A stretch of 54,617 nt of DNA from Myxococcota bacterium (GTDB lineage: Bacteria; Myxococcota_A; UBA796; CAJQPC01): assembly GCA_036012755.1 (NCBI GenBank), contig DASCPX010000002.1, forward strand, positions 1 through 54,617, written 5' to 3'. Numbering within the stretch: the stretch's first letter is position 1; each line of letters opens with the position of its first letter. Shown piece after piece: positions 12,019 to 49,680 of this stretch. The notes under the pieces were generated by a model, which worked only from the letters and a program-made list of their open reading frames with translations, searched no databases and was not told the origin of the DNA. Both the position numbers and the translations under genes were made by a program.

Positions 12019-13101
12019 TCAGGTCTTGGACCCCAGCCAGCGCATCGGGTCCTGTGGGGTGTCGTAGCGGCGGACCTCGAAGTGGAGCCGCGAGCCCTTG
12101 CCGTCGGTGACGCCGGTCTCTCCGGCGAGTCCGATGACGTCACCGCGCTTGACCTGCTTGCCGAGCTTGACCTGTGACTTGCCGAGGTGGGCGTAGACGG
12201 TCTTGAAGCCGTCCCCGTGGTCCACGATGATGGTCTGGCCGTAGCCGGGGAAGAACTGCAGGTTGCTGACCACCCCGTCGGCGACGACTCGAATGGGTGT
12301 GTGCTTCGGCGCGAGGATGGTGACGCCGTGGTTCTTCGCGTCCCCTCCGGTCTTTTCGTCGATGTAGCGGCCGTAGCCTCGCAGGATGTCGCCGCTGACC
12401 GGCCACCGCATCTTCCCTGCCAGGGTCGCGAAGGGCTCGCTGCCGCTCTTGCCAGCGTCACCGGCGTCATAGAGCGCCAGCGTCTCGCCCATGTCCACCC
12501 CCGCCTGGGTCCGCTCGCGGAGAGCGCCGAGCGCGGTGGTCTTGTCGGTCTTGATCTCCTCCAGGAGCGCGAGGCGCCGAGCGCGGTCGTCTCGCAGGCG
12601 GGCCTCCTTCAAGCGGACCTCGGCCTGCAGCGCCGCCAGGGCCGCCCGGTCGGTGTCGACGCGGTCGACCGCGCCGCGCTTGAGCTCGACCTGGTTCCGG
12701 AAGCGGCGCACCACCACCTCGGTCTCGCGGATGATCGAAGAGAGGTAGCGGGTGCGCCGGCGGAGGTCGTGGGGATCCTCCGCCGAGAAGACGATGCGGG
12801 CGAAGCCGCGCCGGTTGATGTGGTAGAGGGCTCGGATGAGTCCGCTGATCTCGTCGGCCTGCTCGTCGAGCGCCGCCTGGGCGCGCATCAACTCGTCCTC
12901 GTTGAGCATGCGCTCCTGCTCGAGCTCCTGGCCGCGCTCGGAGAGCTGGTTGATCTCCTGCTGGACCTCGTAGAGCTGCGCTTCGACGTCGTTGAGTTCG
13001 CTCAGGATGCGGCGCTCGTTGCGCTCGGCCTTGTGGAGGGTCCGCCGCGGATCGAGGTCTTCGGCGAACGCGGACACCAAGAACAGCAAGAGCAGCATCA
13101 T
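12019..13101 (-). CDS. envC: Murein hydrolase activator (coiled coil plus degenerate M23/LytM domain)
   Basis: Long coiled coil, then WPVSG, YGQTIIVDHG, VYAHL and LHFEVR with incomplete Zn ligands. Follows ftsX. Confidence 0.88.
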   Translation of the reverse strand: MMLLLLFLVSAFAEDLDPRRTLHKAERNERRILSELNDVEAQLYEVQQEINQLSERGQELEQERMLNEDELMRAQAALDEQADEISGLIRALYHINRRGFARIVFSAEDPHDLRRRTRYLSSIIRETEVVVRRFRNQVELKRGAVDRVDTDRAALAALQAEVRLKEARLRDDRARRLALLEEIKTDKTTALGALRERTQAGVDMGETLALYDAGDAGKSGSEPFATLAGKMRWPVSGDILRGYGRYIDEKTGGDAKNHGVTILAPKHTPIRVVADGVVSNLQFFPGYGQTIIVDHGDGFKTVYAHLGKSQVKLGKQVKRGDVIGLAGETGVTDGKGSRLHFEVRRYDTPQDPMRWLGSKT

Positions 13102-13985
13102 GGGGCCTGGCTCCAGAACCGGAAGATGCTCGTCGAGCAGCCGACTACGCCGAGCACCACTCCAGCCAGCAGGAGCACGGCGACGTATTGGAGGGGGAGG
13201 AACATCATGCCGTCATCTACAGAGAGTGACAGCGTGTCCTGGAGCTGGTTCACCAGGGCCTTGTGGAGCACGAAGACGCCGAGGAGGGCGAGCAGCGAGC
13301 CAACGAAGCCCTGCAGGGCGCCCTCGAGGATGAAGGGGACAGCGACGAAGGTCCAGGTGGCGCCGACCAGCTTCATCGTCTCGAGCTCCTGCCGGCGCGC
13401 GTAGGCCACGAGGTGCATCGTGTTTCCGACGAGGAACACGGCGGCGGTGAAGATGAGCGAGCCCAGCACGATGCCGAGGACCTGCAAGAGCGCCAGGAAG
13501 GTGTTGAAGCGCTGGACCCACTCCTGCCCGTAGTCGATGTACTCGAAGTCGGCGGCGTCGATCGAGTCGACGAAGGTGGCGATGTCGCCTGGTCGCGTCG
13601 ACGACTCCCTGAGCTTGATCTCGAGTGACGCGGGGAGGACCGAGGGGCCGAGTTCCTCGATGATAGGGCCGACGTCCTCGACCTTCACCATGAGCCACTC
13701 GGCGGCTTCCTCCTCGGAGACGTACCGCACATCTGCTACAGCCGGCAGGTTCGAGATGTCGTCCTTGACCTCGAAGCGCCGGTCGACGGGCACGTCGGTG
13801 TAGAAGTACGCGCTGACGTGGACGTCGCGGTCCCAGCTGTCCACGACCCGACCCAGGTTCACCATGATGCCGAGGTAGACCCCGGCCAACAGCACCGCGG
13901 CGGTGATGACCCCCGTCGCCACCAGGTTCAGGTAGATGTTCTCGCGAAGGGACCGCAGGGCCCGACGGATGAGGTGGCCCAGCAT
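13098..13985 (-). CDS. ftsX: Cell division permease FtsX
   Basis: LPASLEI, IDYGQEW, MKLVGAT and PFILEG motifs; four TM segments. Confidence 0.93.
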   Translation of the reverse strand: MLGHLIRRALRSLRENIYLNLVATGVITAAVLLAGVYLGIMVNLGRVVDSWDRDVHVSAYFYTDVPVDRRFEVKDDISNLPAVADVRYVSEEEAAEWLMVKVEDVGPIIEELGPSVLPASLEIKLRESSTRPGDIATFVDSIDAADFEYIDYGQEWVQRFNTFLALLQVLGIVLGSLIFTAAVFLVGNTMHLVAYARRQELETMKLVGATWTFVAVPFILEGALQGFVGSLLALLGVFVLHKALVNQLQDTLSLSVDDGMMFLPLQYVAVLLLAGVVLGVVGCSTSIFRFWSQAP

Positions 13986-14638
13986 CAGCGGTCCACCAGG
14001 CGGCCACGCTCGAAGCGCAGGCGACGATGGGGGAAGCGGTCCATGAGGGCGACATCGTGGGTCGCCACCAACACCGTGGTGCCTCGCAGGTTCACGGAGA
14101 GGAGGATCTCCATGACCTCGATGGCCAGGCCACCGTCGAGGTTCCCCGTTGGTTCATCGGCGAGCAGGACGGCCGGGTCGTTGATGATCGCGCGCGCTAC
14201 GGCGACGCGTTGCTGCTCGCCGCCGGAGAGGTCCAGCGGGTGGCGCTCGCCCATGCCCCCGAGCCCGACCACCGTGAGCGCGGCGCGGACCCGTCGGTCG
14301 ACCTTGGCTCGGCTCACGCCCAGGACCTCCAGCGCCAGGCCGACGTTGTCACCCACGGTCCGGCTCTCGATGAGCTTGAAGTCCTGAAAGACGACGCCGA
14401 TGTTGCGGCGCAGGAAGGGGAGTTGGCGCGAGCTCAGCTTGCTGGCGTCTACCCCGCCGACCAGCAGCTTCCCGCTCGTCGGCCGGATGGCGCCGTAGAG
14501 CAGCTTCAAGAGCGTGCTCTTGCCTGCTCCGGAGGTGCCCGTGACGTAGGCGAACTCGCCTTTGCTCACGTGAACCGTGACATCGTTCAGGGCCTCGACA
14601 TCGCCGAAGGCCTTGTGCACGTGGTAGAGGCGGATCAC
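13985..14638 (-). CDS. ftsE: Cell division ATP-binding protein FtsE
   Basis: GTSGAGKS, LRRNIGVVFQDFKLI, LSGGEQQRV and ADEPTGNLD motifs. Confidence 0.94.
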   Translation of the reverse strand: MIRLYHVHKAFGDVEALNDVTVHVSKGEFAYVTGTSGAGKSTLLKLLYGAIRPTSGKLLVGGVDASKLSSRQLPFLRRNIGVVFQDFKLIESRTVGDNVGLALEVLGVSRAKVDRRVRAALTVVGLGGMGERHPLDLSGGEQQRVAVARAIINDPAVLLADEPTGNLDGGLAIEVMEILLSVNLRGTTVLVATHDVALMDRFPHRRLRFERGRLVDR

Positions 14639-15447: not shown

Positions 15448-15477
15448 CTGGTCTCCATGGGCGTGCTAGAGAGCGGC

Positions 15478-16679: not shown

Positions 16680-18229
16680 GTCACGCCATCGGTGGAGAGC
16701 GTCCTGTTGTCGAGCCCGCCGACGACGAGGACGCCGTAGACGGGGTCGGAGGCCAGCGTGGGCCACCAGACCTGAGAGGGGAGCGAGCCAGCGGCGTCGC
16801 CATCGGAGCAGCCATCGAGCAGCTCCCAGCCGATGCCCTCTGTCCACAGCTCGGCGCAGGCGATGGGGACGCCCCCTCCGTACTCCTCCTGGCCGTCGTA
16901 CATGCTCATTCCGGAGTTTCCGCCGATGACCAGCACTCGGCCATCCGCCAGCGTGGTCGCCGCGAAGGCTGCGCGGGGGATGTTCAGGTCGCCTGCGTCG
17001 CTCCACTGTCCCGTGTCGATGTCATAGATGACGGCGGAGGCCAGCGCCGACACCTCGTCCAGGAAGTCGATCGGATCGTCCTGGCTGACGCCGCCGATGA
17101 CCATGGCCCTGCCATCTCCGACCGGGACCATCTGGTGGTGGGCACGTGAGATCTCGAGGGCTACGGCGGAGTCCTCGACCGTGTCGCCCTGGACGAGCTG
17201 GCAGGTGCTCACCGTGTTCCAGACGTTCCCGCCGGGCAGCTCGGCGCCGCCACAGATGAGCGCTCCCTCGGAGCCGAGGGAGGCCCCGGCCAGGAAGGGT
17301 CCATAGCTGGCCAGGTCTCCGAGCTTCTCGAAGCTGCGCTCGTTCCGCCTGTAGACCTCGATCTTCTCGGAACGGGCGAGGTATCCGGCTCCCTCTTCGG
17401 CGCCCCAGCCGCCTGCCAACAGGACATCCCCCGACTGGAGCTCGATGGCGATGTGCTGGGTGCGGGCGTCCCTCAGGTTGTTCTCGGTAGGGACGGCCTC
17501 TCCGGTGGCGGGGTCCCACAAAAAAGCGCTGTTGCTGGTCGTCTGGAAGTCCAGGTCGTTGGTGTGGCCGCCGGCGAGCAGGATGAGCCCGGCGTCGTCG
17601 GCGCCGCCGGTGAGCAGGGTGGCGCTGTGCCCGATGTGTCCGGCGGAGCTCCCTGTGTACTTCGCCTCGAACTGCGGGATCGTGCCTGCCTCGGTGAAGG
17701 CGAGGTCCACCGCTGGCGGGGCGACGTCGACCCGCAGGATCGCGCTCGAGGCGTTGCCGCGCTCGGCGCCGTTCTCCCAGTAGCCGCGGGTGTCTCCGCC
17801 GAAGAGGAAGAAGCTGCCGTTGCCGTCGGGAGCCAGCGCGCCGAGCGCGTTGCTCTTGTCGAGCGAGGCGAACCAGCCTGCGGAGCCGACCTCGGTCACG
17901 AGCACCGTCTCCTCGATGCTCTCGTCGTGCGCCGTCACCGGCTGCGTTGTTCCATACGAGACCAGCAGCTCGCCGCTGTAGCCCACCAGTGTCAGGCGTG
18001 TTCCGTCGAGGTCGCTCAGGTCCTCTACCTGCGGTGAGCCGGTCGTGGACTCCAGCTCGTACTCCTCTGGAGCCCCCGCCGAGTGGTCGAGCCTCAGCAC
18101 GAGCCGGTCCAGTCCATCGAAGGGGGCCTGGTTGCTGGGGGTGACGACGTTCAGCGTCACGTCGTAGGTCGCGACCTCACCACGCCCTAGTGGTCCGTTC
18201 TCGCAGGCGATCAGCGCCAGAAGGTGCAT
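16652..18229 (-). CDS. Kelch-repeat beta-propeller lipoprotein
   Basis: MHLLALIA|C start; repeated R/H...GxVLxxGG kelch motifs (e.g. TTLADGRVLVIGG). Confidence 0.82.
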   Translation of the reverse strand: MHLLALIACENGPLGRGEVATYDVTLNVVTPSNQAPFDGLDRLVLRLDHSAGAPEEYELESTTGSPQVEDLSDLDGTRLTLVGYSGELLVSYGTTQPVTAHDESIEETVLVTEVGSAGWFASLDKSNALGALAPDGNGSFFLFGGDTRGYWENGAERGNASSAILRVDVAPPAVDLAFTEAGTIPQFEAKYTGSSAGHIGHSATLLTGGADDAGLILLAGGHTNDLDFQTTSNSAFLWDPATGEAVPTENNLRDARTQHIAIELQSGDVLLAGGWGAEEGAGYLARSEKIEVYRRNERSFEKLGDLASYGPFLAGASLGSEGALICGGAELPGGNVWNTVSTCQLVQGDTVEDSAVALEISRAHHQMVPVGDGRAMVIGGVSQDDPIDFLDEVSALASAVIYDIDTGQWSDAGDLNIPRAAFAATTLADGRVLVIGGNSGMSMYDGQEEYGGGVPIACAELWTEGIGWELLDGCSDGDAAGSLPSQVWWPTLASDPVYGVLVVGGLDNRTLSTDGVTYFAASPEM

Positions 18230-18289
18230 GGCGGGCAGCGTAGATGTGGCATTCGGAACCTGTCAACCGGACAGGGTTAGACCTTCTTC

Positions 18290-18952
18290 ATGCCTGCACT
18301 GAGCGAGCTGTTGGCTGGCGTCGAGGGCATCGCCCATGGCTTCACGGGGGTCGAGGAGGGCGACCTGCGCGGACCGGCAGGCTGGGCCGACGTCGCGAGG
18401 GCACTCGGGATCCCGGGGGCGCCGGTCGCGCGGGCGGTACAGGTCCATGGCACCCATGTCGTCGATGGAGACCCGGGGGGTCCGCTGGAGGTCCAGGCCG
18501 ACGCCGTGATTGTGAGCGAACCCGGAGTCTTCGCGGCGGTGCGGGTCGCGGACTGCGTGCCCATCTTGATGGCTGCTCCAGGCGCTGTGGCGGCGGTGCA
18601 CGCCGGCTGGCGAGGCACGGTCGCCAGGATCGCCCCGATCGCGCTGCAGCACCTCTGTGCCCGCGCTCGCTGCCGTCCGCGGGATGTCGTCGTTGCGATC
18701 GGACCGTGCATCTCGGTGGACGCCTACGAGGTCGGCGACGAGGTCCTCTCTTCGGTCGACGCCCTCGGGCCCGGTCTGACCCGGGGCCGGTACGCGGATC
18801 TGAAGGCCGCCAACGCGCACCTGCTCCGCGAGGCGGGTGTGGTGGACCTCGACGTCCTCGCCGTGTGCACGGTCGGGACTCCGGGTTTCTTCTCCTACCG
18901 ACGTGACGGTCCGGCCACCGGTCGCCAGGCCGGGCTCATCGCCCTGTGCTGA
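18290..18952 (+). CDS. pgeF: YfiH/PgeF family protein
   Basis: QVHG, ADCVPIL, HAGWRG, IGPCI and FFSYRR motifs. Confidence 0.92.
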   Translation: MPALSELLAGVEGIAHGFTGVEEGDLRGPAGWADVARALGIPGAPVARAVQVHGTHVVDGDPGGPLEVQADAVIVSEPGVFAAVRVADCVPILMAAPGAVAAVHAGWRGTVARIAPIALQHLCARARCRPRDVVVAIGPCISVDAYEVGDEVLSSVDALGPGLTRGRYADLKAANAHLLREAGVVDLDVLAVCTVGTPGFFSYRRDGPATGRQAGLIALC

Positions 18953-19956
18953 TCCTGGCGTCGGTCTTCGGCTGCGCGGACTCGGATCCGCTGCTCGAGC
19001 CTGTGCGCGAGAGCCTGGCGGCCTACGAAGCTGGCACCGGAGCGCTCCTCTCCGGCCGCGCCGAGGTCGCCGAGGAGCACTTCGACGCGGCCATCGACAT
19101 CGACGGAGAGAGCGCCACGCTGCGGCTCTGGAGAGCGAAGGCCCGCGCCGAGCAGGGCGACCTCTCCGGTGCGATCGACGGTGCTACGGAGGCGCTTGGG
19201 CGCCAGCCGGGCTTCCTGGAGGCGCGCTACGATCGGGCGTGCTGGCGGAGCCGGAGCGGGGACCTCGAGGGTGCCGCCGAGGATCTCGCCGTTGCCCTGG
19301 AGGACCCCACCCTCGATCCGCTCTTCGTGGCACGGGACCCGGATCTGTCGGCTCTACGCGCATCGGAGTTCGGCGCGGTGGTCCCTCGACCGGAGCTGCC
19401 CGTGCACGCAGAGCTCGTCGAGGACGCCGTGTTCCTTGGCGGAGAGGTCGTCCTGAAGCTCGCGGTGCTGCATCCGGACGCGCTCAGAGTCGAGCACGAG
19501 GGCGCGGACGTCGGCGTGCTCGCGCTGCGAAAGGTCGTCGAGGATCGGACCGGTGACAACGCGCGGACGCGGACGGAGCTGCGCTTCGCCTGGACGGTCC
19601 TGGGGGCGGCCGAGGTCGCGCTCGGTCCCTGGAGAGTCAGCGCGGACGGTCTGCAGGGGGTCGCCGAGGGCGGTGTCGTCCGAGCGCTGGCACCCGCGGG
19701 ACATTCCCCCGATCTGGTTGACTCACTGGCAGACGACTGGGTGCTCCCGAGCGCCCTGGAGGAGGGGCGTGCAGGGTCCCGTCTCGTGGTGTTCGGAGAG
19801 CCCGGCGACCGGATCGAGTGGGCCGCCGAGCGGGTCGTCACCTATGAGATCCGCGAGTCGGGCCAACCGGTGAAGCTCGCCTGGTCCGGCATCGTCGCGG
19901 CGGGCGAGCCTGTCACCCTGGTGCGAGGTCGTCAGAGGATCGAGGCCGGGAACTGA
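18946..19956 (+). CDS. TPR-containing putative lipoprotein
   Basis: MLILASVFG|C start; TPR-like helices (ARYDRACWRSRSGDLEGA, RDPDLSALR); C-terminal beta-rich region. Confidence 0.75.
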   Translation: MLILASVFGCADSDPLLEPVRESLAAYEAGTGALLSGRAEVAEEHFDAAIDIDGESATLRLWRAKARAEQGDLSGAIDGATEALGRQPGFLEARYDRACWRSRSGDLEGAAEDLAVALEDPTLDPLFVARDPDLSALRASEFGAVVPRPELPVHAELVEDAVFLGGEVVLKLAVLHPDALRVEHEGADVGVLALRKVVEDRTGDNARTRTELRFAWTVLGAAEVALGPWRVSADGLQGVAEGGVVRALAPAGHSPDLVDSLADDWVLPSALEEGRAGSRLVVFGEPGDRIEWAAERVVTYEIRESGQPVKLAWSGIVAAGEPVTLVRGRQRIEAGN

Positions 19957-19960
19957 GCGC

Positions 19961-22900: not shown

Positions 22901-23071
22901 GACCACCACGAGAGCGTCCTCCAGCCAGGCGAAGCCACGGTCTCCGACGAGGATGCAGCCTTCGTCGTAGACGACGGGCTCGGCGCTGTCGTCTGTCGGG
23001 TCACCGCTGTCGTCGTTGCCGTTTCCGGGACCGTTGTTGCAAGCGAAGATCAAGGGAAGAAGGGAGGACAT
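19961..23071 (-). CDS. Large acidic lipoprotein with right-handed beta-helix repeats and two putative metal-binding (MopE-like) motifs
   Basis: MSSLLPLIFA|C start; repeated ISGNTF/VEDNTF-type parallel beta-helix strands; two DxDGDG...DCxD...DxDCDG motifs near the C-terminus. Confidence 0.85.
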   Translation of the reverse strand: MSSLLPLIFACNNGPGNGNDDSGDPTDDSAEPVVYDEGCILVGDRGFAWLEDALVVVEEGGTIYLTECGDTFDQTATVTKSVNIVGPGEFETDLSALTWIAPTNEPALTISGASDVKVSGFTLISTRNGLVIDASTGVVLDSIVYQDIANTAIKATDSEITVTNSTFTAPQYGGVEISGGTADISGNTFDAPIAFGVHVIDDGVATVTDNAISATMYTDATEGISDGFGLFGDGGSIITEGNLFADNVVAVFVLQGDLTMSGDTISDGLFGVYAQFGAIDIDGVSVENPSTQGMYLVSQSDPVSLTNSSIYGDPELTFSTTDPDGWTGGAVTVATNDVATISNVEIEGYNAQGLLVVPYDDDIEVEMDTVTITNTGRFGLYVNEATATLTDVTVDGLRLVDDPDLVNQDYYEVGWGVFFNNSEVDWAGGGILDSEVIGLVGQYSAMSFDGITSMGHADVGLWSIYSTIEVRNSTLSSSPNYGGIANYYGDAIVEDNTFVDNQASWYFEYESYSLSYIGQGNNGNSTTGDTTFTDPDASFTTVGIGVGDMISLSGEPAGWNYVLSIDSDTQLTMENAWTADVSGGYYSMYDYEPVMYGYEYSLESLDLACVSGGPMEVRNNTFSTGSQGLYAQACEELVIEDNTWTDYARGYVLQFSSGTDAKLANNSIAGSGPYAFYCYDSTVEAEALSISEVDAATIDVTYTRDGEPDGGYSYSSSGVALYSSACTLQLSDVDISEAHYHAIHATESNLDFEDVEVTGGSDRSTSTISTVYAQWSTSEPYFVAEGLSITDPDSGAGMALVSSSSLGEGTIWLDELAVSGARDAGLDVDTLTAAISNATISGNGDGIISVGSALDLSDTELSFNAGWGYTASDWDGDGWSAGGGDCNDGDSSVNPDATEGTDFADDDCDGIADDGTDESDRDGDGYSIADGDCDDNDTTRYPGAAEGTHGIDSDCDGNAYDAYPSSLDASGLSAIGNGAGGLNLKDLSEVTLSSSSATGNTGYGLECSSSTTWTTCDTSDLSGNTDGEHDGCDTCD

Positions 23072-23290: not shown

Positions 23291-23321
23291 GCGGAATCGG
23301 CCTGTTGGCCTCATCGGGCGC

Positions 23322-24872
<1,551 letters not shown>

Positions 24873-27172: not shown

Positions 27173-27537
27173 GTCCGTCCGACTCGAAGCTCGCGGCCCT
27201 GCGTCGAGGCGCTGCCGCCGAGGAGGCGGTGGCGTCTCTGCTCTCTGAGCGAGGCTGGAAGATCCTCGACCGCAACTGGTCGGGGGCGGGTGGGGAGCTG
27301 GACATCGTCGTCCGGGATGGTGGCCGCCTTCGCATCGTCGAGGTCAAGCTGCGCCAGGAGGGGGACCTGGCGGGCATCGAGTGCGTCGACTGGAACAAGC
27401 TGCGGAGAGTCCGCAGGGCGGCCGAGGCATGGCTCCTTGGCTACGAGGACCTCTTCGACGAGGTCTGCCTCCTCGTCGCGATGGTCGAACCCACCGATGA
27501 GGGCTTCCGCATCGAGCTCTTCGACGACCCCATCTGA
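27169..27537 (+). CDS. yraN: YraN family protein (probable CTG start at 27169; first canonical start is 27229)
   Basis: [29 protein letters not shown] and VEVK motifs; sits between rplS and rsmI. Confidence 0.85.
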
Positions 27538-28370
27538 TGCTCCTGGTCGTCGCCACCCCGATTGGAAACCTCGCGGACCTGAGCCCCAGGGCCCGCCAGA
27601 GCCTCGCCGAGGCAGAGGTCATCGCCGCCGAGGACACCCGGGTGACCCGCAAGCTGCTCGCAGCCCTCGATATTCCAGCGCCGGAGCTCGTCAGCTACCG
27701 GCGAGAGGACGAACAGCGGCGTGCCGCGCGCCTGGTCGATCGCATCGCCGAGGGCACCCGGGTGGTCCTGGTGAGCGACGCCGGCACTCCTGCGATCTCG
27801 GATCCGGGGGTGCCGCTGGTGCGCTCGTGCCACGAGCGTGGCATCCCGGTGCGCGCGGTCGCCGGGCCCTGCTCGCCGGCTGCGGCGCTGTCCGTGGCTG
27901 GCCTCCCGACCGCGCCCAACCACTTCCTGGGCTTTCCGCCGAGGAAGCCAGGTCAGCTGCGCCGCTGGCTGAGGGAGCACGGGGCCCTGCCGGGGACGCT
28001 GGTGATGCTGGAGGGACCCCTGCGTGTCGCCAGGACCGCGGCGGCGATCGCAGAGGTGCTCCCCGATCGCAGGGTCGCGCTCTGTCGGGAGCTGACCAAG
28101 CTCCACGAAGAGGTGCTCGTCCTCGACGCCGCCGGGCTCGCCGCGGATCTCGTGGCGCGGGAGCGCATCCGTGGGGAGTGCGTCCTTGTGGTCGGCCCCG
28201 GCGAGGCCCCGGTGAGCGAGCGCCGCAGCACAGAGGCGACCGGCGATCTGAAGACCATCGCCGCGGCTCTCGCGGACCGCTGGGGCTGCACGAGGCGCGA
28301 GGCCTACCAGGTGCTCCTGAGCCTGGAGGCTGGGGAGCTCACTCGCCTGGAGTGCGAACCAGCACCGTGA
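27537..28370 (+). CDS. rsmI: 16S rRNA (cytidine1402-2'-O)-methyltransferase
   Basis: VATPIGNLADLSPRA, AEDTR, VSDAGTPAISDPG and RELTKLHEE motifs. Confidence 0.96.
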   Translation: MLLVVATPIGNLADLSPRARQSLAEAEVIAAEDTRVTRKLLAALDIPAPELVSYRREDEQRRAARLVDRIAEGTRVVLVSDAGTPAISDPGVPLVRSCHERGIPVRAVAGPCSPAAALSVAGLPTAPNHFLGFPPRKPGQLRRWLREHGALPGTLVMLEGPLRVARTAAAIAEVLPDRRVALCRELTKLHEEVLVLDAAGLAADLVARERIRGECVLVVGPGEAPVSERRSTEATGDLKTIAAALADRWGCTRREAYQVLLSLEAGELTRLECEPAP

Positions 28371-29358
28371 GCTCGGCTCCGGCCGTCACGCGGATCGTGT
28401 CGGTGCCCGTGTAGACCGGGTAGGGGTGCTCCAAGCGGTGGGGCATCACGTAGTGGGCGTCGCCGTAGAGGTCGATCCTGCCGTACTGGAACATGCGCCA
28501 GTAGAGCCCGAGCCCGGCGCTCACGGTGCTGTACTCCCCGACGGTCACGAGCTGGCCCTGGGTCGACTCCATCACCGTCGGCAAGTAGGTCCCGGAGGGC
28601 ACGTCTCCCCAGGAGCTGTAGTCGAAGCCGAGGCGGAAGTCGATGGCGAAGAAGGCGTTGGTGACTGCGTTCTCGTAGGTCTGGACCTCTACGCCGGAGC
28701 GCACGCCGAGCACCTGGGGATTGACGACCTCCAGGCCGTCTGCCGTGGTCACCCCCTGCCGCAGCCAGGTGAACTCGAGCCAGGGCTGGGACTGGCCGGC
28801 GGTCGTCGAGAAGGCGTTTCGAATCCGCAGCGCCGGCGCCCCGTTTCCGGCGCCCCGCGAGTCGCCGTCTAGGGTGTAGATGTTGCTCTTGTCTGGTGTG
28901 CGGAAGCCGACGTCGAGCAGCCATGTGCTCGCGTTGCCTCGGCGCGTGAAGGACTCGGAGAAGGGAGTGCCCTTGGCTCCCAGCCAGACCCCGCCGGAGC
29001 CGGAGCCGGTGCGCGTGACCGTCTCGCCGATCGGCTCGCCGTAGGCCATCGAGCCGAGCTGCCGGTTTGGATCGAAGACCACGGCGTTTGCCTCGGACCA
29101 GCTCCAGCGATCGATCACCCAGGTCGGCACGCCGAAGTAGACGGCTGCCCCCGGGGCGACGCTGAAGGTGGCGCCGAAGTCGATGACGTGGGCCTCGTGG
29201 AGGGCCCTGGCGACCTGGATGTCGCTTCCGTCGACTGGCTCCTGGAGGGAGCCTGTCTGTATGTCCGCGCCGTATGCGACGGTGATGTCCCCGCGAAGGA
29301 AGGGCGGGACGGTGGTGACGTCGGCAGCTTGGAGCGGCGCGATGAGCGCGAGCAGCAT
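28339..29358 (-). CDS. Hypothetical secreted protein, probably an outer-membrane beta-barrel
   Basis: Short signal (MLLALIAPLQA), alternating aromatic/Gly beta-strands, strong coding bias. Confidence 0.7.
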   Translation of the reverse strand: MLLALIAPLQAADVTTVPPFLRGDITVAYGADIQTGSLQEPVDGSDIQVARALHEAHVIDFGATFSVAPGAAVYFGVPTWVIDRWSWSEANAVVFDPNRQLGSMAYGEPIGETVTRTGSGSGGVWLGAKGTPFSESFTRRGNASTWLLDVGFRTPDKSNIYTLDGDSRGAGNGAPALRIRNAFSTTAGQSQPWLEFTWLRQGVTTADGLEVVNPQVLGVRSGVEVQTYENAVTNAFFAIDFRLGFDYSSWGDVPSGTYLPTVMESTQGQLVTVGEYSTVSAGLGLYWRMFQYGRIDLYGDAHYVMPHRLEHPYPVYTGTDTIRVTAGAELTVLVRTPGE

Positions 29359-29368
29359 GAGCGCGACC

Positions 29369-30739
<1,371 letters not shown>

Positions 30740-30844: not shown

Positions 30845-31342
<498 letters not shown>

Positions 31343-32989
31343 ATGGTCTTCGCCTGGCTCGTCTCAGCGAGCGCCCAGGACGTGTCGACGTCCGGGACGT
31401 TCCGCACCGAAGGGCGCTACTACTTCTCCGATCGCGTCCTCGACGACTTCCCCGAACAGCAGCGCCTCTACGACTACGCCGAGGTCGTGGGACGACTGAA
31501 CCTGCTGGCCGACGATGGTGTCTGGCAGGTCGGGACCCAGGTCGATGGTGTCGGCATGTTCTGGAACTACTACTACCTCGACGACGTGAAGACCTACGAG
31601 TTCGACCTCCTCGGCGAGGGCGCCGGATCCGCGGTCGACTCCGGCTTCGCCAACATCGAGAAGGTGTGGCTGACGCGCCGGTTCATACACGGACGGCTCC
31701 AGCTCGGGGATGGCTACGCGAGCTTCGGCCGCGGTCTGGCCTTGAACATCGTCAAGAACACCGACATCGACGTCGACACCTCCATCGTCGGCGCCAAGAC
31801 CACCGTGACGCGCAACGACTGGGACCTCCAGGTGATCGCGGGCCTGTCGAACGAGCAGCAGGTCCTCCAGGACAACCCGAACCGCCAGGTCCGAGGCAAC
31901 CGGTACCACCTCGTCAGCGGTGTCCGCATCGATCGATGGGGGCTCGGACCAGCCAACATCGGCGTGCACGGGGTGGCGGTCGAGCTCGCCGACACACTGG
32001 ATGCAGAGAAGCCCTTCGCGAGCATCGGCGAGCTCGGAGACGGCGGCTTCGACGCCCTGGTCGCCGGGGCCACCGCAGAGCTCTACGCGGCTGGTGTGGA
32101 CTGGTTCTTCGAGGGCGACGCCTACCGGTACGCCGAGCCGCTGATGTTCGCGACTGGCGAGGTCGAGCCTGGCTACGCAGCCTACGGCTCCGCCAGCTTC
32201 TACCCGGGTCCGCTCGCCGTGCTCTTGGAGGCCAAGCGCTACAAGAACACCGAGCGCGTCAACGCGATCACGGTGGGGGAGGGCTACGAGCTGATGGTCG
32301 GCCCCACGCTGGAGTACGAGCGCGTCATCACAGAGGACAGCTCCGCCGCCATCAACAGCAACGACATCTGGGGCGGTCGAGCTCGGGTGAACCTCTCCCT
32401 GAAGAAGGGCAAGGCGGTCCCCTACGTCGCACTCGGCGCCTATCGGGACCTCGAGCTCGGCGGCCTGCACTTCAACCGGGCCCCGGAGACGATCGTCCAC
32501 CCGGTCGTCGGGCTGGACCTGGTGGGCGGCGTGCACACGCTCCTGCTCAACAGCGGATACCGGGTGGACCTCCGGGACGAGGACTTCGGTCGGGATCGGC
32601 TCGCCCACATCGACGCCACCTGGGCCTTTCCGCTCCCGAAGCACCTCCACGGCGAGGTCATCTGGGACGCCTACAGCTTCCAGTGGGGCGACAACGCCAT
32701 CCAGCAGCACGACTTCGTCACGAGCAGCCTGGCCCTGGCCGGCTTCACAGAGGGCGGCTGGGCCTTCGTGCTCTACAACGACTGGACGAACGACCCGCTC
32801 GTCGACTCGACGGGCAACATCACCGATCAGACCTACCTCGCGGGAGAGGTGCAGTGGCAGCCCACCGACAGCACCACGCTGAAGGGCTTCTACGGCGCCT
32901 ACAAGGCCGGCATTCGCTGTGCCGGCGGCCAGTGCAAGCGCCTCCCGGGATTCGAAGGTGCGCGAGTCACCGCGACGATAGCTTTCTAG
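31343..32989 (+). CDS. DUF6029-like outer-membrane beta-barrel protein
   Basis: GDGYASFGRGLAL, C-terminal GIRCAGGQCKRLPGFEG, terminal Phe, adjacent to tlpA. Family assignment is from recalled motifs. Confidence 0.72.
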   Translation: MVFAWLVSASAQDVSTSGTFRTEGRYYFSDRVLDDFPEQQRLYDYAEVVGRLNLLADDGVWQVGTQVDGVGMFWNYYYLDDVKTYEFDLLGEGAGSAVDSGFANIEKVWLTRRFIHGRLQLGDGYASFGRGLALNIVKNTDIDVDTSIVGAKTTVTRNDWDLQVIAGLSNEQQVLQDNPNRQVRGNRYHLVSGVRIDRWGLGPANIGVHGVAVELADTLDAEKPFASIGELGDGGFDALVAGATAELYAAGVDWFFEGDAYRYAEPLMFATGEVEPGYAAYGSASFYPGPLAVLLEAKRYKNTERVNAITVGEGYELMVGPTLEYERVITEDSSAAINSNDIWGGRARVNLSLKKGKAVPYVALGAYRDLELGGLHFNRAPETIVHPVVGLDLVGGVHTLLLNSGYRVDLRDEDFGRDRLAHIDATWAFPLPKHLHGEVIWDAYSFQWGDNAIQQHDFVTSSLALAGFTEGGWAFVLYNDWTNDPLVDSTGNITDQTYLAGEVQWQPTDSTTLKGFYGAYKAGIRCAGGQCKRLPGFEGARVTATIAF

Positions 32990-33017: not shown

Positions 33018-33923
33018 ATGTTCCTAGCCATCACCCTCGCTCAGGCCGGAGTCGTCGACGTGTCCTCCGTCACTGCCTCGCGCACGCTGCCAGACGACGA
33101 GGGCGTCAGCTACGCCGAGCAGAACACGCAGGACCACAAGCAGTCGACCGTCTGGGTCGAAGGCGACACCAGCGGCTCGGGGCTGGGTGACTGGATCCAG
33201 TTCGACTTCGACGGCGAGGTCACGTTGACCAGCTTCCGTGTCTGGAACGGGAACTTCTACAGCTACGACTTCTGGAACCGCCACAACCGCATCAAGGAGC
33301 TGGAGCTCGAGTTCTCTGACGGCACCAAGCAGGTGATCACCCTCACGGACGAGATGGCGCCCGAGCTCGTGACGCTCGAGAAGCCGGTGAAGACCAGCTC
33401 GGTCAAGATGAAGATCAAGGGCATCTACCGGGGCTCCACCTTCAACGACACGGTCATCAGCGAGGTGATCTTCTTCGACCAGCGCAGCGACGGCCGCGTC
33501 CCTGTGAAGGCATACCAGGCCAGCACGGTGTACCCGGCGGATGCCGATGGCAGCTATGACCCCAAGAACCTCGGGGACGGAGCGGTCGACTCCCTGTGGT
33601 GCGAGGGCGTCGAGGACGGGGACGGAACCGGCGAGTGGGTCCAGCTCGACTTCGGCAGAAGCCACACGATCTCGAAGCTCGAGCTGGTCAACGGGAACGC
33701 CTACAACATCATGTACTTCATGAAGGGAAACCGGGCGACGGAGATGACCCTGTCGTTCTCTGACGGGTCGACCCAGACCGTGGCGGTCAAGGGTTCGCCC
33801 TCGCTGCAGACCATCGCCATCTCCCCGGTGTCGACCTCTGCCGTGAGGATGACCTTCACGGCCGTCCAGACCGGCAAGGAGTTCAACGATCTGTGCATCG
33901 CGGAGGCCGTCTTCGTCGAGTGA
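33018..33923 (+). CDS. Secreted protein with two tandem discoidin/F5/8-like domains
   Basis: Internal duplication: WVEG..GSGLGDWIQFDF..WNGN..ISEV and WCEG..GDGTGEWVQLDF..VNGN..IAEA. Confidence 0.8.
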   Translation: MFLAITLAQAGVVDVSSVTASRTLPDDEGVSYAEQNTQDHKQSTVWVEGDTSGSGLGDWIQFDFDGEVTLTSFRVWNGNFYSYDFWNRHNRIKELELEFSDGTKQVITLTDEMAPELVTLEKPVKTSSVKMKIKGIYRGSTFNDTVISEVIFFDQRSDGRVPVKAYQASTVYPADADGSYDPKNLGDGAVDSLWCEGVEDGDGTGEWVQLDFGRSHTISKLELVNGNAYNIMYFMKGNRATEMTLSFSDGSTQTVAVKGSPSLQTIAISPVSTSAVRMTFTAVQTGKEFNDLCIAEAVFVE

Positions 33924-34004
33924 CGTGCTGCTGACAAGACGGGACTACCGCAACCCTGGGTGTTGGGGCTACCATACACATCCTCAGGCACCTGGAGGCG
34001 ACCC

Positions 34005-34967
34005 ATGGTCCTGCTGTTGGCGGCGTGCCAGAGCGATCAGAACATCTCCCGCAACACGCACACCGACGTGTTCTGGCAGGAACCGGCCTCTGCCGTCGAC
34101 ATCCTCTGGGTCATCGACGACAGCAACTCCATGGCAGAGGAGCAGGCTCGGGTCGCGGACGGCTTCGAGTCCTTCATCCTGAGCATCGAAGAGACGAACA
34201 TCGACTTCCAGCTCGGCGTCATCACCACCGACATGGACCTCGACAACGAGCAACGAGCCCAGCTCCTGGGCAACCCCCGGGTGCTGACCGCCGACGACAA
34301 CTACGTCCAGCAGTTCAAGAACCTCGTGCAGGTCGGGACCGATGGCTCCGACAAGGAAAAGGGGCTCTCCGCGGCGCTGGAGGCCCTGAGCGAGCCGATG
34401 ATCTCCGGGGACAACATCGGCTTCCTCCGTGACGACGCCATCCTGTCCATCATCTTCGTCTCCGACGAGAACGACTGCTCGGATGACGAGGCGCTCTCAG
34501 GCGAGCCCAGCACGGCCTGCTACGAGGAGGCGGAGCGCCTCATCCCGATCACGGAGTTCATCTACAACTTCCGCGGCCTCAAGGGGCCGAGCGGAATGCG
34601 AGTGCTCGCCTCGGCGATCATCGGTCCCAAGGTCGCCGATGGCTGCGAAGGCAGCTGGCCCGGTCATCGCTACGCTGCTTTGGCCGAGGGCCTTGGCGGC
34701 AAGGTCGGGAACATCTGTGACGACGACTACGGCGGCCTGATGTACGACCTCGGCCTGGCGGTCTCTGGCGAGCTGAGCACCTTCCAGCTGAGCTACGCCG
34801 CGGTCATCGACAGCATCGAGGTCTACGTCGACGACGACCTCATCGAAGAGGACCCGGACGAGGGCTGGACCTACGACAGCGAGTACTGGATCCTGCGCTT
34901 CGACGGCGACTACGTGCCCGAGCGGGGCACCCAGGTCTCGGTCGCCTACGAGGTCGCCTCCGGCTGA
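34005..34967 (+). CDS. VWA/MIDAS-like lipoprotein
   Basis: MVLLLAA|C start; VDILWVIDDSNSM (DxSxS), GVITTD and FLRDDAILSIIFVSDENDCS motifs. Confidence 0.82.
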   Translation: MVLLLAACQSDQNISRNTHTDVFWQEPASAVDILWVIDDSNSMAEEQARVADGFESFILSIEETNIDFQLGVITTDMDLDNEQRAQLLGNPRVLTADDNYVQQFKNLVQVGTDGSDKEKGLSAALEALSEPMISGDNIGFLRDDAILSIIFVSDENDCSDDEALSGEPSTACYEEAERLIPITEFIYNFRGLKGPSGMRVLASAIIGPKVADGCEGSWPGHRYAALAEGLGGKVGNICDDDYGGLMYDLGLAVSGELSTFQLSYAAVIDSIEVYVDDDLIEEDPDEGWTYDSEYWILRFDGDYVPERGTQVSVAYEVASG

Positions 34968-38174: not shown

Positions 38175-38178
38175 CGCC

Positions 38179-39276: not shown

Positions 39277-39286
39277 GGAGGCAGGC

Positions 39287-39670: not shown

Positions 39671-39672
39671 GG

Positions 39673-42504
<2,832 letters not shown>

Positions 42505-45552: not shown

Positions 45553-46046
45553 TCGCTTGCCCTCCGAAGGGGCCCCAAGGTGTGCACATCACGGTCACGG
45601 AAGACCAGTTCGACCTGCGTCCCGAGCGCGACGAGATGCTCGCCGTGCTCGACGCGGCCGCGCCGGAGGTCGAGTCCTGCTACCTCACCGAGCTCAGGGT
45701 GGACGCTCGGTCCTACGGGGATCTCGTCTTCGTCGCGACCCTGGCCGCCGACGGGAGCGTCCAGGACGTCGAGGTCAGCCTCTCCACGATGTCCCGCCGC
45801 ATGGACCGCTGCGTCGCTGCGGTCTTCATTCAGCTCGAGTTCCCGGCGCCGGTCGAGGCCGGCACGACCATGCGCTACCCGCTCGTCTTCACCACCGAGC
45901 TGACCCCTCCGGAGGTCGCCCGCGCCCTGAAGCTCAAGCACGGCCTGATCGACGCGGAGCAGGAGGCCCTGGAGGCCGAAGAGGCCGCGCTGGACCCCAA
46001 GAAGCGTGAGGAGCAGGGCGAGCGGGGCTGGACGGACTCTTGGTGA
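45534..46046 (+). CDS. Lipoprotein with an AgmX/PglI-type TonB C-terminal-like domain
   Basis: MFPLFLIA|C start; VESCY...DGSV...CV...LEFPAP...YPLVF pattern. Confidence 0.75.
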   Translation: MFPLFLIACPPKGPQGVHITVTEDQFDLRPERDEMLAVLDAAAPEVESCYLTELRVDARSYGDLVFVATLAADGSVQDVEVSLSTMSRRMDRCVAAVFIQLEFPAPVEAGTTMRYPLVFTTELTPPEVARALKLKHGLIDAEQEALEAEEAALDPKKREEQGERGWTDSW

Positions 46047-48529
46047 CCCTGCTCCTGGCTTGCGTGAGCCTCCAGCTCGACGCGCCGGTCGATCATCCGC
46101 ACGTCGTCTATGACCCCGGCGGCGGTGACATCCCCCTGCCGAACGACCTCGTGGTGGAAGACGGGCACCTCGCGCTCCCGACGGACGACGAAGAACTCAG
46201 CGCGGTCGAGGCCGACCTGCGACGGCAGCTCAACGAGCTCGATGGCTGGCCGACGGTCAGCGATGTCGGCTTCTCCCTTTCGCACGAGCTCGGCAGCCTC
46301 GACGGCATCTCCGTGTGGGAGTGGGGCGCGAACCCCGAGATCGTGCCGGTCGATGTCGTCGTCGACGGGACAGAGGTCGAGCTCGCTCACCCCCTTGGTG
46401 GCTGGGAGCGAGGCGGCACCTACCTGGTCGTGGTCGACGAGCGCCTCTCCACCAGCGACGGCAGGGGCTTCGGGCCAGACGCTGCCTTCTGGTACCTGCG
46501 CGCCGAAGAGGACCTGACCGAGCACCCAGACGCCTTCCCCGGCGCCACGGAGGCCGAGCGCCTCGACACCGCCGCGGAGCTCGAGGACAAGCGCCGGGAG
46601 CTGGCGCCCTTCCTGGACTTCGCAGACGACCAGGGCCTGCCCCGAGACCGGGTCGCGGCGGCGTGGACCTTTACGACGACCTCGCGCGTCGAGGTGGCGA
46701 TGGACCCGGACGGCGCCCGCGTCCCGCTGCCCTTCGACCTGCTGATCGATCCGGCCACGGGCCTCGTCGATCTGCCGCCCTCCGATGACGACTCCGAGGT
46801 CGAGGCGGATGCGAAGCTCGTCGCGAACACATTGGATGGCTTCGGGCTCAACGCCAACCTGCTCTTCGACACCACCGACGTGGTCGTCGAGGACACGGCG
46901 GACATCACGCTCTACGCCATCGACCAGACGCCGGTGTCCATGGGGCTCGACGTGCGGGTGATGGAGGGGGAGCACCTCGTCCTGGAGCCTCACGATCTGC
47001 CGCTTCACCCAGGCACCACCTATGCGCTGGTGGTCCGCGGACTGAAGGACGAAGCGGGCGAGGACGTCGTGCCGATGCCCCTGGGCATGCTGGTCGCCAG
47101 CGACGCCCCGCTGGTGGTCGACGGCGAGGTGCAGCTCGACATGGAGCTGGAAGACGCCGAGCGCATCGAGATGGCCCGCCTCGAGCTCGACCCGCTGCTC
47201 GACAGCCTGGGACGGGACGATGTCATCGCCGCCTGGCCCTTCCGCACGCTGGATCCGCTGCCGGCTCAGCAGCGCTCGGCGCGCATGGCGGAGACCCTGG
47301 ACCTCGAGGTGGGCCTGACGGTCTCCTCGCGCCTGCCGGCCTACGACCTGATCTGGGACGACGCGCTGTCCGAGCTCTTCCCGGGCGTCCTGAACCCGGC
47401 GCCTGCGGTCTATGCAGGGCGGGTCTGGGGTGTCCACGAGGTCGTCCAGGGCACCCTGAACACGGCGACCTTCCTCGACCCCGAGACCAGGCGGTGGACC
47501 GCCGAGCACACCGTGGAGCCGATCGGCTACCTCGCCATCATCCCGGAGACTCCCGACCCGGAGCTCCCGGTCATCATCTTCGGCCACGCCATCGTGACCG
47601 ACCGCCGCTTCCTGCTGACCATCGCCGGGGAACTCGCACAGCGCGGCTTCTACAGCGTCGCCATCGACTTCCCCTTCCACGGTCCCAGGACCGTCTGCGT
47701 CGAGTCCTCGCTGGTCGCCGTCCCGAACTTCATTCCAGAGGAGCTCCAGGACGACTTCGGCTACGAGGAGTCGATCATCTGGCTGCCTCCCTGCGCCAGC
47801 GGCGAAGACGCCTCCTGCTCACCGACCGGTGAGTGCCTCGACGCCGAGGGCAACCCAGAGGACTTCAGCGTCTTTCCCCTGATCGACATGTACCCGGCCT
47901 CCGGAGCGGCGTTCATGGACATGGACGACCTCCCCCACATCCCCGACCACTTCCAGCAGGCGCTGGTGGACCTCGGCGCGCTGCGTTGGGCGATCGCCAG
48001 CGGCGCCTTCGACGAGGTCTTCGGACAGAGCGTGCCGCGGGACCGCTTCTACTACGCGGGGCAGTCGCTCGGTTCGATCATCGGCATCGACTTCGTCGCC
48101 CACACCCCGGAGATCGAGCGCGCGGTCTTCAACGTCCCTGGCGCCGACCTCGTCGATCTCTTCCGCTACTCCGACTACTTCGGGCCTCAGATCGACTACT
48201 GGACGGAGACCCACGAGCTCGAGGAGGGGAGCTACGAGCAGGAGCGCATGCTGAACGTCGCCAAGTGGCTCGTGGACGCTGTCGACCCGACGAGCAACGG
48301 CTACGGCTACGCCGAGGACCCCCGGCCCGTCCTGCTGCAGATCGACAAGATCGACGAGGAGACCGGGGACATCATCATTCCGAACTTCACCTCAGAGGGC
48401 TTCCAGGCCCAGAGCGGGCACCAGCTGGAGACCTACCCGAGCGTCTTGCACGCGGACCTCATCATGCCCGTGTTGGGTGATGCCATGCTCGAGGACCTGG
48501 CGGACTTCCTGGAGGACGGGGATCTGTGA
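46040..48529 (+). CDS. Extracellular lipase (Pla-1/VolA-like: N-terminal Ig-like regions plus an alpha/beta hydrolase domain)
   Basis: IPLPNDL and VPLPFDL repeats; IIFGH, AIDFPFHG, GQSLG nucleophile elbow, DAVDP. Confidence 0.78.
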   Translation: MVTLLLACVSLQLDAPVDHPHVVYDPGGGDIPLPNDLVVEDGHLALPTDDEELSAVEADLRRQLNELDGWPTVSDVGFSLSHELGSLDGISVWEWGANPEIVPVDVVVDGTEVELAHPLGGWERGGTYLVVVDERLSTSDGRGFGPDAAFWYLRAEEDLTEHPDAFPGATEAERLDTAAELEDKRRELAPFLDFADDQGLPRDRVAAAWTFTTTSRVEVAMDPDGARVPLPFDLLIDPATGLVDLPPSDDDSEVEADAKLVANTLDGFGLNANLLFDTTDVVVEDTADITLYAIDQTPVSMGLDVRVMEGEHLVLEPHDLPLHPGTTYALVVRGLKDEAGEDVVPMPLGMLVASDAPLVVDGEVQLDMELEDAERIEMARLELDPLLDSLGRDDVIAAWPFRTLDPLPAQQRSARMAETLDLEVGLTVSSRLPAYDLIWDDALSELFPGVLNPAPAVYAGRVWGVHEVVQGTLNTATFLDPETRRWTAEHTVEPIGYLAIIPETPDPELPVIIFGHAIVTDRRFLLTIAGELAQRGFYSVAIDFPFHGPRTVCVESSLVAVPNFIPEELQDDFGYEESIIWLPPCASGEDASCSPTGECLDAEGNPEDFSVFPLIDMYPASGAAFMDMDDLPHIPDHFQQALVDLGALRWAIASGAFDEVFGQSVPRDRFYYAGQSLGSIIGIDFVAHTPEIERAVFNVPGADLVDLFRYSDYFGPQIDYWTETHELEEGSYEQERMLNVAKWLVDAVDPTSNGYGYAEDPRPVLLQIDKIDEETGDIIIPNFTSEGFQAQSGHQLETYPSVLHADLIMPVLGDAMLEDLADFLEDGDL

Positions 48530-49680
48530 TCCTCTGGATCTCGGCCGCCCTCGCCGGCGGCTACGAAGTCGCCCAGCAGGGTGTGCGCGCCGGAGGCATG
48601 GCCCACGCCGGGACCGCGGCGGTCGCAGCCGAGAGCGCCTGGTACAACCCGTCGGCGCTGACCGACGGAGTGCCTCGCTTCGGTCTGAGCGGGGTGGTCG
48701 CCAACCCGCGCATCCAGAGCCGGGCAGAAGCAGAGGTCTACGAGACCATCGGCGGACCCTCCTACATTCCCCAGGTCCACGGGGCCTGGGCCTGGGGCGA
48801 CTGGGCAGCAGGCGCCTCGCTGAACGCGCCCTTCGGTGGTGGCGTGCGGTGGCCCGCCGACTGGCCCGGTCGCTTCGACATCGTCTGCTCGCGCACCCAG
48901 GTCCTGCGCGCCTCGCCGTTTGTCGCCACCCGCCGCGGACCGGTGGCGCTGAGCATCGGTCCCCACCTCGACGCCGGCACCCTGGAGGTCTTCAAGGCCA
49001 CCGATCACGTCAGCGAGGAGGGCACCGCCCACCTGCTCCTCGACGGGCGCGGCGTGGGTGTCGACGCGGCCCTGTTCCTGGACCTCGACGAGGTCGACCT
49101 CGGGGTCTCCTACAAGTCCCGCACCTCGATGCGGCTGTCGGGCCTGGCGGACTTCGACGTGCCGGATCCATTCGCCGCCACCCTGCCCGACCAGACGGTC
49201 GAGGCCGACTGGACCCTCCCCGACCGCCTCGCCGTCGGCGTCGCCTGGCGTGGGCTTCGCCTGGACGCGACCACGACGCTGTGGTCGGTGAACGACGAGC
49301 TCCGCTTCGAGTTCGCGGAGAGCGACGACGCTGTGAACGACTACCGCTGGCGGAACTCTGGTGCCCTGCGCCTCGGCGGAGAGACGGCGCTCCAGGGCTT
49401 CGAGCTGCGGGGCGGGCTGGCGCTCGAGAGGACGCCGGCGCCGGTCGAGACCCTGAGCGCGGCTTCCCCCGACGGGCCCCGCTTTTCACTGACCGTCGGC
49501 GCCGGTCGGGCCCTGACGGATGCACTCCGCGTCGACGCCTTCGTAGAGCACCTGCGCATCCTCGAGCGCCAGAGCGACTCGACCCAGGCGAGCTATGGCG
49601 GCTCTGCCTGGGTCGCGGGTGTGGGGGTCGAAGCTAGGCGCTTCGGCGCTGGGCGTGACGCAGCTTCCGGATCGCCTTGA
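48526..49680 (+). CDS. FadL/OmpP1/TodX family outer-membrane hydrophobic-compound transporter
   Basis: GGYEVAQQG...GMAHAG...WYNPSAL hatch, APFG motif, beta-strands. Confidence 0.85.

Follow-up and report, generated by a model that had tools for sequence, protein, structure and literature searches.

Ultra-short, uncharged leaders on putative exported proteins in an order of Myxococcota

Leaders in the window and where they start

The stretch of DNA considered here (the window; positions 1-54617 of contig DASCPX010000002.1, 54,617 nucleotides) belongs to the genome of a Myxococcota bacterium (G000; 6.73 Mb, 250 contigs, 68% GC), and 13 of its genes open with very short, hydrophobic, uncharged leaders that resemble truncated signal peptides and that, across the genome, appear to be the predominant form of lipoprotein signal. 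An earlier note on this DNA had claimed these 13 leaders, seven with a site of the signal peptidase I type (SPI-type, A-x-A before the cut) and six with a lipobox and its cysteine, and all of them translate as written at the coordinates and on the strands listed below (a bar marks the predicted cut). The claim that they lack Lys and Arg also stands, and with no Arg in any of the 13 a twin-arginine (Tat) motif is absent throughout.

13063..13101, minus strand: SPI-type leader MMLLLLFLVSAFA, 13 aa; EnvC-like M23 protein; ATGA overlap with ftsX-like stop
18203..18229, minus strand: lipoprotein leader MHLLALIA|C, 8 aa; kelch-repeat protein
18946..18975, plus strand: lipoprotein leader MLILASVFG|C, 9 aa, GTG start; TPR protein
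23039..23071, minus strand: lipoprotein leader MSSLLPLIFA|C, 10 aa; beta-helix/MopE protein; start less constrained
29326..29358, minus strand: SPI-type leader MLLALIAPLQA, 11 aa; zero upstream start codons of the tested kinds
30845..30886, plus strand: SPI-type leader MTLALALALGSADA, 14 aa; ResA/TlpA-like thioredoxin, domain from residue 13-15; start less constrained
31343..31375, plus strand: SPI-type leader MVFAWLVSASA, 11 aa; in-frame TAG immediately before ATG
33018..33047, plus strand: SPI-type leader MFLAITLAQA, 10 aa; F5/8 type C domain protein; Shine-Dalgarno-like GGAG
34005..34028, plus strand: lipoprotein leader MVLLLAA|C, 7 aa
44062..44097, plus strand: SPI-type leader MLISAFLASAAA, 11-12 aa, from GTG; Amidase_2 protein; upstream frame free of start codons
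45534..45560, plus strand: lipoprotein leader MFPLFLIA|C, 8 aa; start inside the final 19 nt of the upstream gene
46043..46063, plus strand: lipoprotein leader MTLLLA|C, 6 aa, GTG on upstream stop
48526..48555, plus strand: SPI-type leader, 10 aa; FadL-family outer-membrane protein; GTGA overlap with upstream stop

Exported-type families recur among the 13 (EnvC-like M23, FadL, amidase, ResA/TlpA-like, F5/8, MopE/NosD, kelch and TPR), four genes being without a family; the seven SPI-type genes comprise the EnvC-like M23, FadL, amidase, ResA/TlpA and F5/8 proteins, one gene without a family and one with a domain of unknown function (DUF). The earlier note also held that the mature start of the FadL protein fixes its cut site, and here one orthologue agrees (AHA|GAFEV versus ALA|GGYEV), while the PDB search fell short of the FadL N-terminus; FadL relatives gave one match among 40 genomes, and a single-sequence fold prediction reached a mean confidence (pLDDT) of only 28.5.

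In nine of the 13 genes the start is the first ATG, GTG or TTG after an in-frame stop, and in six (29358, 31343, 33018, 44062, 48526 and 18946) none of seven start-codon kinds (ATG/GTG/TTG/CTG/ATT/ATC/ATA) lies upstream. The constraints cited earlier for starts called immovable hold, 31343 abutting an in-frame TAG and 48526 and 13101 overlapping upstream stops (GTGA/ATGA). For the gene placed at 46040 the short leader holds and the start does not, GTG 46043 (GTGA over the upstream stop) being better than TTG 46040 and leaving a leader of 6 aa. The starts at 23071, 30845 and 34005 are less constrained, as had been said of them, and 45534 also has an open upstream frame; the open frames above all four score as non-coding (dicodon -0.6 to -0.9). 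At 34005, reading instead from a GTG 15 codons upstream would make the leader 22 aa long and include two Arg; the short start has GGAGG at a 6-nt gap. Public gene calls place identical starts on 8/8 window proteins looked up.

It might be supposed that the leaders are an artefact, with the true starts lying upstream at rare codons or with basic n-regions lost to assembly errors; four of the 13 window genes do have an in-frame upstream start, and one member of the 30845 cluster is called 12 aa longer. Genome-wide, however, reading from the first start gives a short lipobox leader in 532/5544 well-scoring genes with a closed 5' end as against 52/22348 non-gene open reading frames, and in genes with at least 22 open upstream codons (n=552) the dicodon score is -0.76 upstream (5% positive) versus +0.48 downstream (95% positive). 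Out of 785 short lipobox genes, 412 have no upstream ATG/GTG/TTG, 240 also have no CTG/ATT/ATC/ATA and 18 stand directly after a stop. Upstream or rare-codon starts are thus rejected, the upstream DNA being non-coding and many frames having no start codon of the tested kinds upstream or abutting a stop; the earlier note had named starts further upstream at non-canonical codons as a ground for refutation. With the same pattern recurring in independent genomes, an artefact is very improbable as a general account, and it is excluded wherever a gene begins immediately after an in-frame stop.

The DNA around the short-leader starts is of the kind expected at real starts: Shine-Dalgarno motifs peak at gaps of 5-7, TANNNT stands at gap 6 in 101/923 and a -4 overlap with the upstream stop occurs in 149/586, the starts in these statistics having been picked from amino acids, independently of those DNA features. 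The start caller employed elsewhere combines upstream DNA, start codon, overlap and coding score and ignores amino acids; its 79% start support is partly built in and carries no weight in the conclusions.

Among side observations, TANNNT precedes the start codon by 5-8 nt in 12% of all genes and in 22% of short-leader lipoprotein genes, a placement that suggests frequent leaderless transcripts in G000. The following further features of the window bear on the starts or on the contrast with ordinary proteins.

18237..18242, minus strand: -10-like hexamer TACGCT, 7 nt before the 18229 start; putative leaderless-type arrangement (genome-wide TANNNT peak gap 6-7)
29366-29371, minus strand: -10-like TAAGGT, 7-nt gap before the 29358 start
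33994..33998, plus strand: Shine-Dalgarno GGAGG, 6 nt before the 34005 start
688..759, plus strand: conventional basic signal peptide, 24 aa; coexisting minority, also at 1329 and 51752
27537..27566 (gene 27537-28370), plus strand: RsmI methyltransferase (cytoplasmic), uncharged hydrophobic Val-rich start without A-x-A or lipobox; counter-example

The coexistence of conventional signals asserted earlier holds for 688, 1329 and 51752 and is uncertain for lolA (6868-7608), where the start is ambiguous between ATG 6886, giving a 38-aa leader, and TTG 6946, giving 18 uncharged residues.

Genome-wide counts and leader anatomy

A tabulation across G000 of charge and of the distance from the start to the lipobox Cys or A-x-A site brings out the predominance of short uncharged leaders. 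With the amino-acid-blind start caller, 958 lipobox genes are found, 814 with a leader of at most 12 residues (mode 7), and 798 of those 814 leaders are free of Lys and Arg. Excluding genes with downstream membrane segments leaves 785/911 with a leader of at most 12 residues and 89 with a long basic one; among genes with a single possible start the proportion is 204/226. About 16% of all G000 genes resemble lipoproteins. On the SPI side, 367 non-lipobox genes without transmembrane (TM) segments are hydrophobic from residue 2, in a selection that included no charge in residues 1-7, and 215 of them have A-x-A within residues 5-17, with the cut most often at residue 10-11; conventional SPI-like genes number only about 79. 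The total, as a fair estimate, comes to about 1,000 of about 5,500 genes, near one fifth of the proteome, so that the short form would be the default signal and not, as had been proposed, the mark of a subclass of exported proteins: it makes up about 85-90% of lipoprotein signals, and the 215 short A-x-A leaders outnumber their conventional counterparts.

These counts bear on whether the leaders are signals at all. They could instead be weak, uncleaved membrane tags, or their proteins could leave by another route, the motifs being remnants; in keeping with this, the leaders fall under the E. coli minimum of 15-16 aa given in PMC5963308, and the same genome has cytoplasmic proteins with hydrophobic starts. 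Yet the -1/-3 rule is specifically enriched, the 215/367 genes with A-x-A comparing with 112±7 in 200 shuffles (maximum 129), whereas AA, A..A and A...A (110, 104 and 97) remain at chance. Likewise, among 1305 hydrophobic starts Cys peaks at residues 7-10 (12, 20, 14 and 9%) against about 1% further on, a narrow distance at which it is conserved while its surroundings diverge. FadL-family barrels and EnvC-like proteins, moreover, have to cross the inner membrane. Statistically, then, the view that the leaders behave as processed export signals is supported by A-x-A enrichment, a conserved lipobox Cys and exported families; that they are such signals is highly probable, and an uncleaved tag or another exit route is improbable.

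The plan of the leader is Met and five to ten hydrophobic uncharged residues, about 55% of the short leaders being Leu, followed by the processing site. In the lipobox of short leaders Leu occupies -3 in 61% and -2 in 61%, as against 23% at -2 in the long leaders of G000, while A/G/S at -1 was required by the search rule. Charge switches with length: under a relaxed lipobox rule that constrains only the last four leader residues, Lys or Arg occurs in 13/666 leaders of 6-10 residues, 8/17 of 13-14 and 47/53 of 15-18. Even at NTGA overlaps, where codon 2 has to start with A, K or R takes position 2 in only 4/139 short leaders versus 254/868 other genes (p 3e-14), which indicates that charge is avoided rather than merely lost. 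The best six-residue hydrophobicity on the Kyte-Doolittle scale is 2.93 in short and 2.97 in long leaders, with totals of 20 and 36 (57%); the equal peak and lower total indicate a truncated signal and not an extra-greasy one, and in the comparison of short with long G000 leaders higher hydrophobicity as compensation was not seen. The early mature region is acidic and poor in Lys and Arg behind short and long leaders alike.

The same figures speak on both sides of a rival that accepts the processing and places the difference in co-translational targeting: the signal recognition particle (SRP) would bind the Leu-rich leader and block deformylase, so that a neutral, formyl-Met leader is delivered to SecYEG/YidC. 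Ffh, FtsY and 4.5S RNA are present in G000, Ffh matched in 30/30 relatives and outgroups, and the exclusion of charge fits a neutral N-terminus. SRP binding is described as inhibiting deformylation, and SRP signals as not needing to be basic, in PMC9099147. Ala, which at residue 2 makes a good substrate for Met removal, is depleted there (7/494 versus 83/988 at residues 3-4). Against this, residue 2 shows no general shortage of small residues (143/494 versus 257/988, p 0.24); the leaders, no more hydrophobic than normal at their peak and with about half the total, fall short of an SRP signal, which is more hydrophobic than signals of the SecA type; and some 1,000 substrates would presumably load a low-copy SRP. 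Targeting of this kind is, on balance, rather unlikely, though it merits more weight than an uncleaved tag.

Distribution, machinery and a proposed route

Among relatives, the 7-residue pattern RTG(NTN)5GCNTGY, with 74 matches in G000, reaches at least 10 matches in 19/60 genomes of the order (up to 106; 11/12 in family f7), and outside the order there are at most 8 matches in each of 341 genomes; relatives' counts treat kin as separate data, and related genomes are not independent. In DNA samples read from the most upstream start within 30 codons, the share of lipobox genes with the short form is 24/32 in G000, 14/19 in G005, 9/15 in G008, 7/16 in G032, 13/31 in G393, 4/12 in G003, 2/6 in G024, 1/2 in G039, 3/18 in G004, 2/13 in G040, 1/17 in G036, 1/10 in G006/G013 and 1/14 in the sister orders. 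By these counts the trait is confined to one order and uneven within it.

Alignment of starts across relatives shows the 18946 Cys and the envC start position to be kept. The lipobox Cys of 18946 orthologues is present in 26/27 relatives (one unreadable), with leaders of 6-16 aa that by eye divide into 19 uncharged ones of at most 12 aa, six of 12-14 with Lys/Arg and one uncharged of 16. In many envC orthologues (30 loci, by eye) the start still overlaps the ftsX stop, and behind it the leader may be long and basic, short and neutral, or something between the two; a fixed start with a varying leader suggests shortening by internal loss. A side observation concerns BamD (TIGR03302; G000 contig C149 39842-40597), which has an SPI-type leader without a lipobox Cys in G000 and most of 30 loci, the Cys being seen only in g7, g9 and G035. 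The BamD of E. coli is a lipoprotein; its counterpart in most of the order may be soluble and periplasmic.

The machinery inventory of G000 is that of an ordinary Sec system: one SecA, one SecY, one YidC, SecD, Ffh, FtsY, 4.5S RNA and two deformylases, with five Lgt, two LspA, one Lnt and three LepB-like genes over family cut-offs, and LolA encoded. The earlier note had envisaged a dedicated targeting factor or altered enzymes, and a lineage-specific factor of this sort (an adaptor, an accessory translocon, or one Lgt or LepB paralogue that recognises short leaders) could draw on the paralogues just listed and on the fact that the short-leader load varies strongly within the order while the SecY change described below does not. 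No dedicated factor and no extra processing enzymes were found, however, in the five genomes compared: Lgt, LspA, LepB, SecA, SecY, Ffh, YidC and Def copy numbers show no systematic difference between three high-load and two low-load genomes, with Lgt at 4-5 in all five. One candidate joins a faint SecY TM4-5-like membrane domain to a C-terminal SecDF P1 head, namely a 479-aa membrane protein of G000 (contig C43 68496-69935), and was rejected: it was found through its SecD head and is below significance with the SecY profile, and its membrane part, used as a single query, matched G002 alone of 54 genomes and none in the high-load g4 or f7, so that with this query the gene does not follow the trait. 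Furthermore, most of the signals are of the short form, which speaks for the core machine rather than a special factor. A dedicated factor is accordingly about as improbable as an uncleaved tag.

Several side observations touch on this machinery. The lgt/lspA loci of G000 lie at C59 99967-102591, C203 23345-24268, C40 2396-3196 and C127 122470-123285; they include a tandem lspA-lspA-lgt-lgt cluster, and acidic tails end one LspA and one Lgt. SecA (contig C23 25963-28764) has a C-terminal metal-binding motif that ends Cys-Cys in 20/20 sequences of the order and Cys-His in 9/10 outgroups, and an order-specific segment precedes it. YajC (contig C27 86880-87236) carries a short uncharged A-x-A leader before its membrane segment, so that this translocon accessory may itself use a short signal. 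The low-load genome G040 (contig C32 15040-18504) has a second, divergent SecY-like open frame of 427 aa outside the ribosomal protein operon.

Order-wide substitutions do occur in the translocase, which lends weak support to the suggestion of an altered SecY or SecA. The SecY column of I187 (E. coli numbering, with clade membership taken from a quick tree) holds Ala (43) or Ser (25) in all 68 in-clade sequences, as against Ile, Met or Thr in 35 outgroups (0/35 A/S; 7/29 outgroup loci were dropped, having been missed by the motif search). G000 SecY retains Ile at I82, I86, I191, I278 and I408. I187 is an isoleucine member of the pore ring in E. coli (PMC2171872). SecA has Tyr at the position of E. 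coli L372 in 21/21 sequences of the order and in 0/10 outgroups, and the adjoining residue, A373, is a prlD site (bioRxiv 2021.08.31.458331).

Taken together, the reading we prefer, at a probability of roughly one in two, is that the leaders are real, cleaved Sec signals cut down to the C-terminal half of a normal signal and sent through the single housekeeping SecA/SecYEG with a tolerant gate. Each would consist of Met, four to eight Leu-rich residues and a motif, either L-L-[AGS]|C to be read by Lgt, LspA and Lnt (mode 7 aa) or A-x-A to be read by LepB (mode 10-11 aa); ordinary enzymes would suffice for lipidation and cleavage because they read the area around the cut site. Transit through one SecA/SecYEG would depend on a gate with the kind of tolerance for weak signals seen in E. 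coli prl mutants, the SecY and SecA substitutions being permissive at most, and much of the targeting information would reside in the acidic, Lys/Arg-poor early mature region. With the cut site at the outer-leaflet active sites, the leader N-terminus would lie in the membrane or the lateral gate, out of reach of the cytoplasmic head groups; such burial would exclude charged side chains below about 14 residues and let them return above. The N-terminal amine would be either formylated or free as the sole positive charge. Cytoplasmic proteins with Val/Ile-rich greasy starts might, as a guess, escape export because that strand folds fast and no cut site is present. A bolder formulation, less likely than not, would make this a distinct default export code, in which five to seven greasy residues capped by formyl-Met and not spanning the membrane are read by a SecYEG-SecA of prl-like character, its pore ring loosened, and go directly to Lgt/LspA or LepB; about one fifth of the proteome would then do without the n-region and half of the h-region.

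A number of points weigh against truncated Sec signals with a tolerant gate. The SecY I187 column is also A or S in 20/150 diverse SecY representatives and is changed in low-load families (G040 and G036) too; T. maritima SecA likewise has Tyr at L372; and of the SecA columns dividing 11 high-load from 10 low-load genomes, six in number, none could be tied to signal binding. Extra acidity behind short leaders as compensation was not seen, the net charge over 10 residues being -1.38 behind short and -1.74 behind long ones. In E. coli, export is slower once the n-region charge is removed, and an h-region must reach a certain minimal length (PMC5875014). Dozens of cytoplasmic proteins, judged by eye (Rossmann-type enzymes, response regulators, the RsmI of 27537), have uncharged hydrophobic starts, so that the SPI-type count of 367 contains some false positives and specificity cannot come from the leader by itself. 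Finally, every genome-wide count rests on the 5990 genes called in G000 by an in-house dicodon model, and the lipobox rule itself partly forces the absence of charge in leaders of 6-7 residues, an effect that the relaxed rule lessens and does not remove. The trait is real, strong and lineage-specific; the mechanism is a plausible proposal.

Significance and relation to known signals

Bacterial export has been treated as requiring a tripartite signal of some 15 residues or more that includes a basic n-region, and the roughly 1,000 genes counted here would break that rule. As these leaders are about half the length of the shortest normal bacterial signal, the minimal needs of the export machinery become testable, and the sister-genus orthologues with ordinary signals offer natural pairs in which the same protein has either a long basic or a short neutral leader. 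Together with the candidate translocase residues, such pairs could be used to test the needs of SecA, SecY, SRP, Lgt, LspA and LepB. The question of proofreading is likewise sharpened by the presence in one cell of short signals and of cytoplasmic proteins with greasy N-termini. Prediction rules that demand a basic n-region or a minimum length would probably miss most of the lipoproteome in these genomes. In the literature searched (few subscription journals, no supplements) no description of such leaders in this lineage was found; large Myxococcota secretomes have been reported, with short signals unmentioned in the accessible part of that source (PMC11495043).

Among known systems a parallel might first be struck with uncharged eukaryotic signal peptides for the endoplasmic reticulum (ER), which have a Leu-rich core right after Met, often without Lys or Arg, and are usually longer, follow the SRP/Sec61 route and have no lipobox. 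The leaders here resemble them in the Leu-rich core after Met and differ in length, route and lipobox. A functional analogue may be seen in the prlA/prlD suppressors of E. coli, translocases of the prl type exporting proteins with defective or absent signals (PMC5963308, PMC2171872, bioRxiv 2021.08.31.458331); the order-wide changes fall at the ring residue I187 and beside A373. In contrast to prlA/prlD, however, the prl alleles listed in the available parts of these sources include neither substitution, both residues occur in other wild-type bacteria, and an effect here is predicted at most.

The closest kin remain the two ordinary classes of Sec signal. E. coli signal peptides have a median of 22 and a minimum of 15-16 residues (PMC5963308), and a lipoprotein signal is made up of n-region, h-region and lipobox (PMC8048626). 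Like Sec signals for signal peptidase II (SPase II) of the E. coli Lpp type, the lipoprotein leaders have an N-terminal lipobox with Leu at -3, A/G/S at -1 and Cys at +1, in a genome that encodes Lgt, LspA, Lnt and LolA; unlike them, they have no basic n-region and only 5-12 residues (mode 7), under about 15, and they mostly have Leu at -2 where the consensus [LV][ASTVI][GAS]C lists A/S/T/V/I. Like Sec signals for signal peptidase I (SPase I), the SPI-type leaders have a hydrophobic core followed by A-x-A and occur on periplasmic and outer-membrane families; unlike them, they have 8-14 residues (mode 10-11) and lack the n-region. Judged by sequence, the leaders would work as SPase I and SPase II signals do while departing from both in the basic n-region and in length, and thus they are a variant of these signals rather than members of either class.

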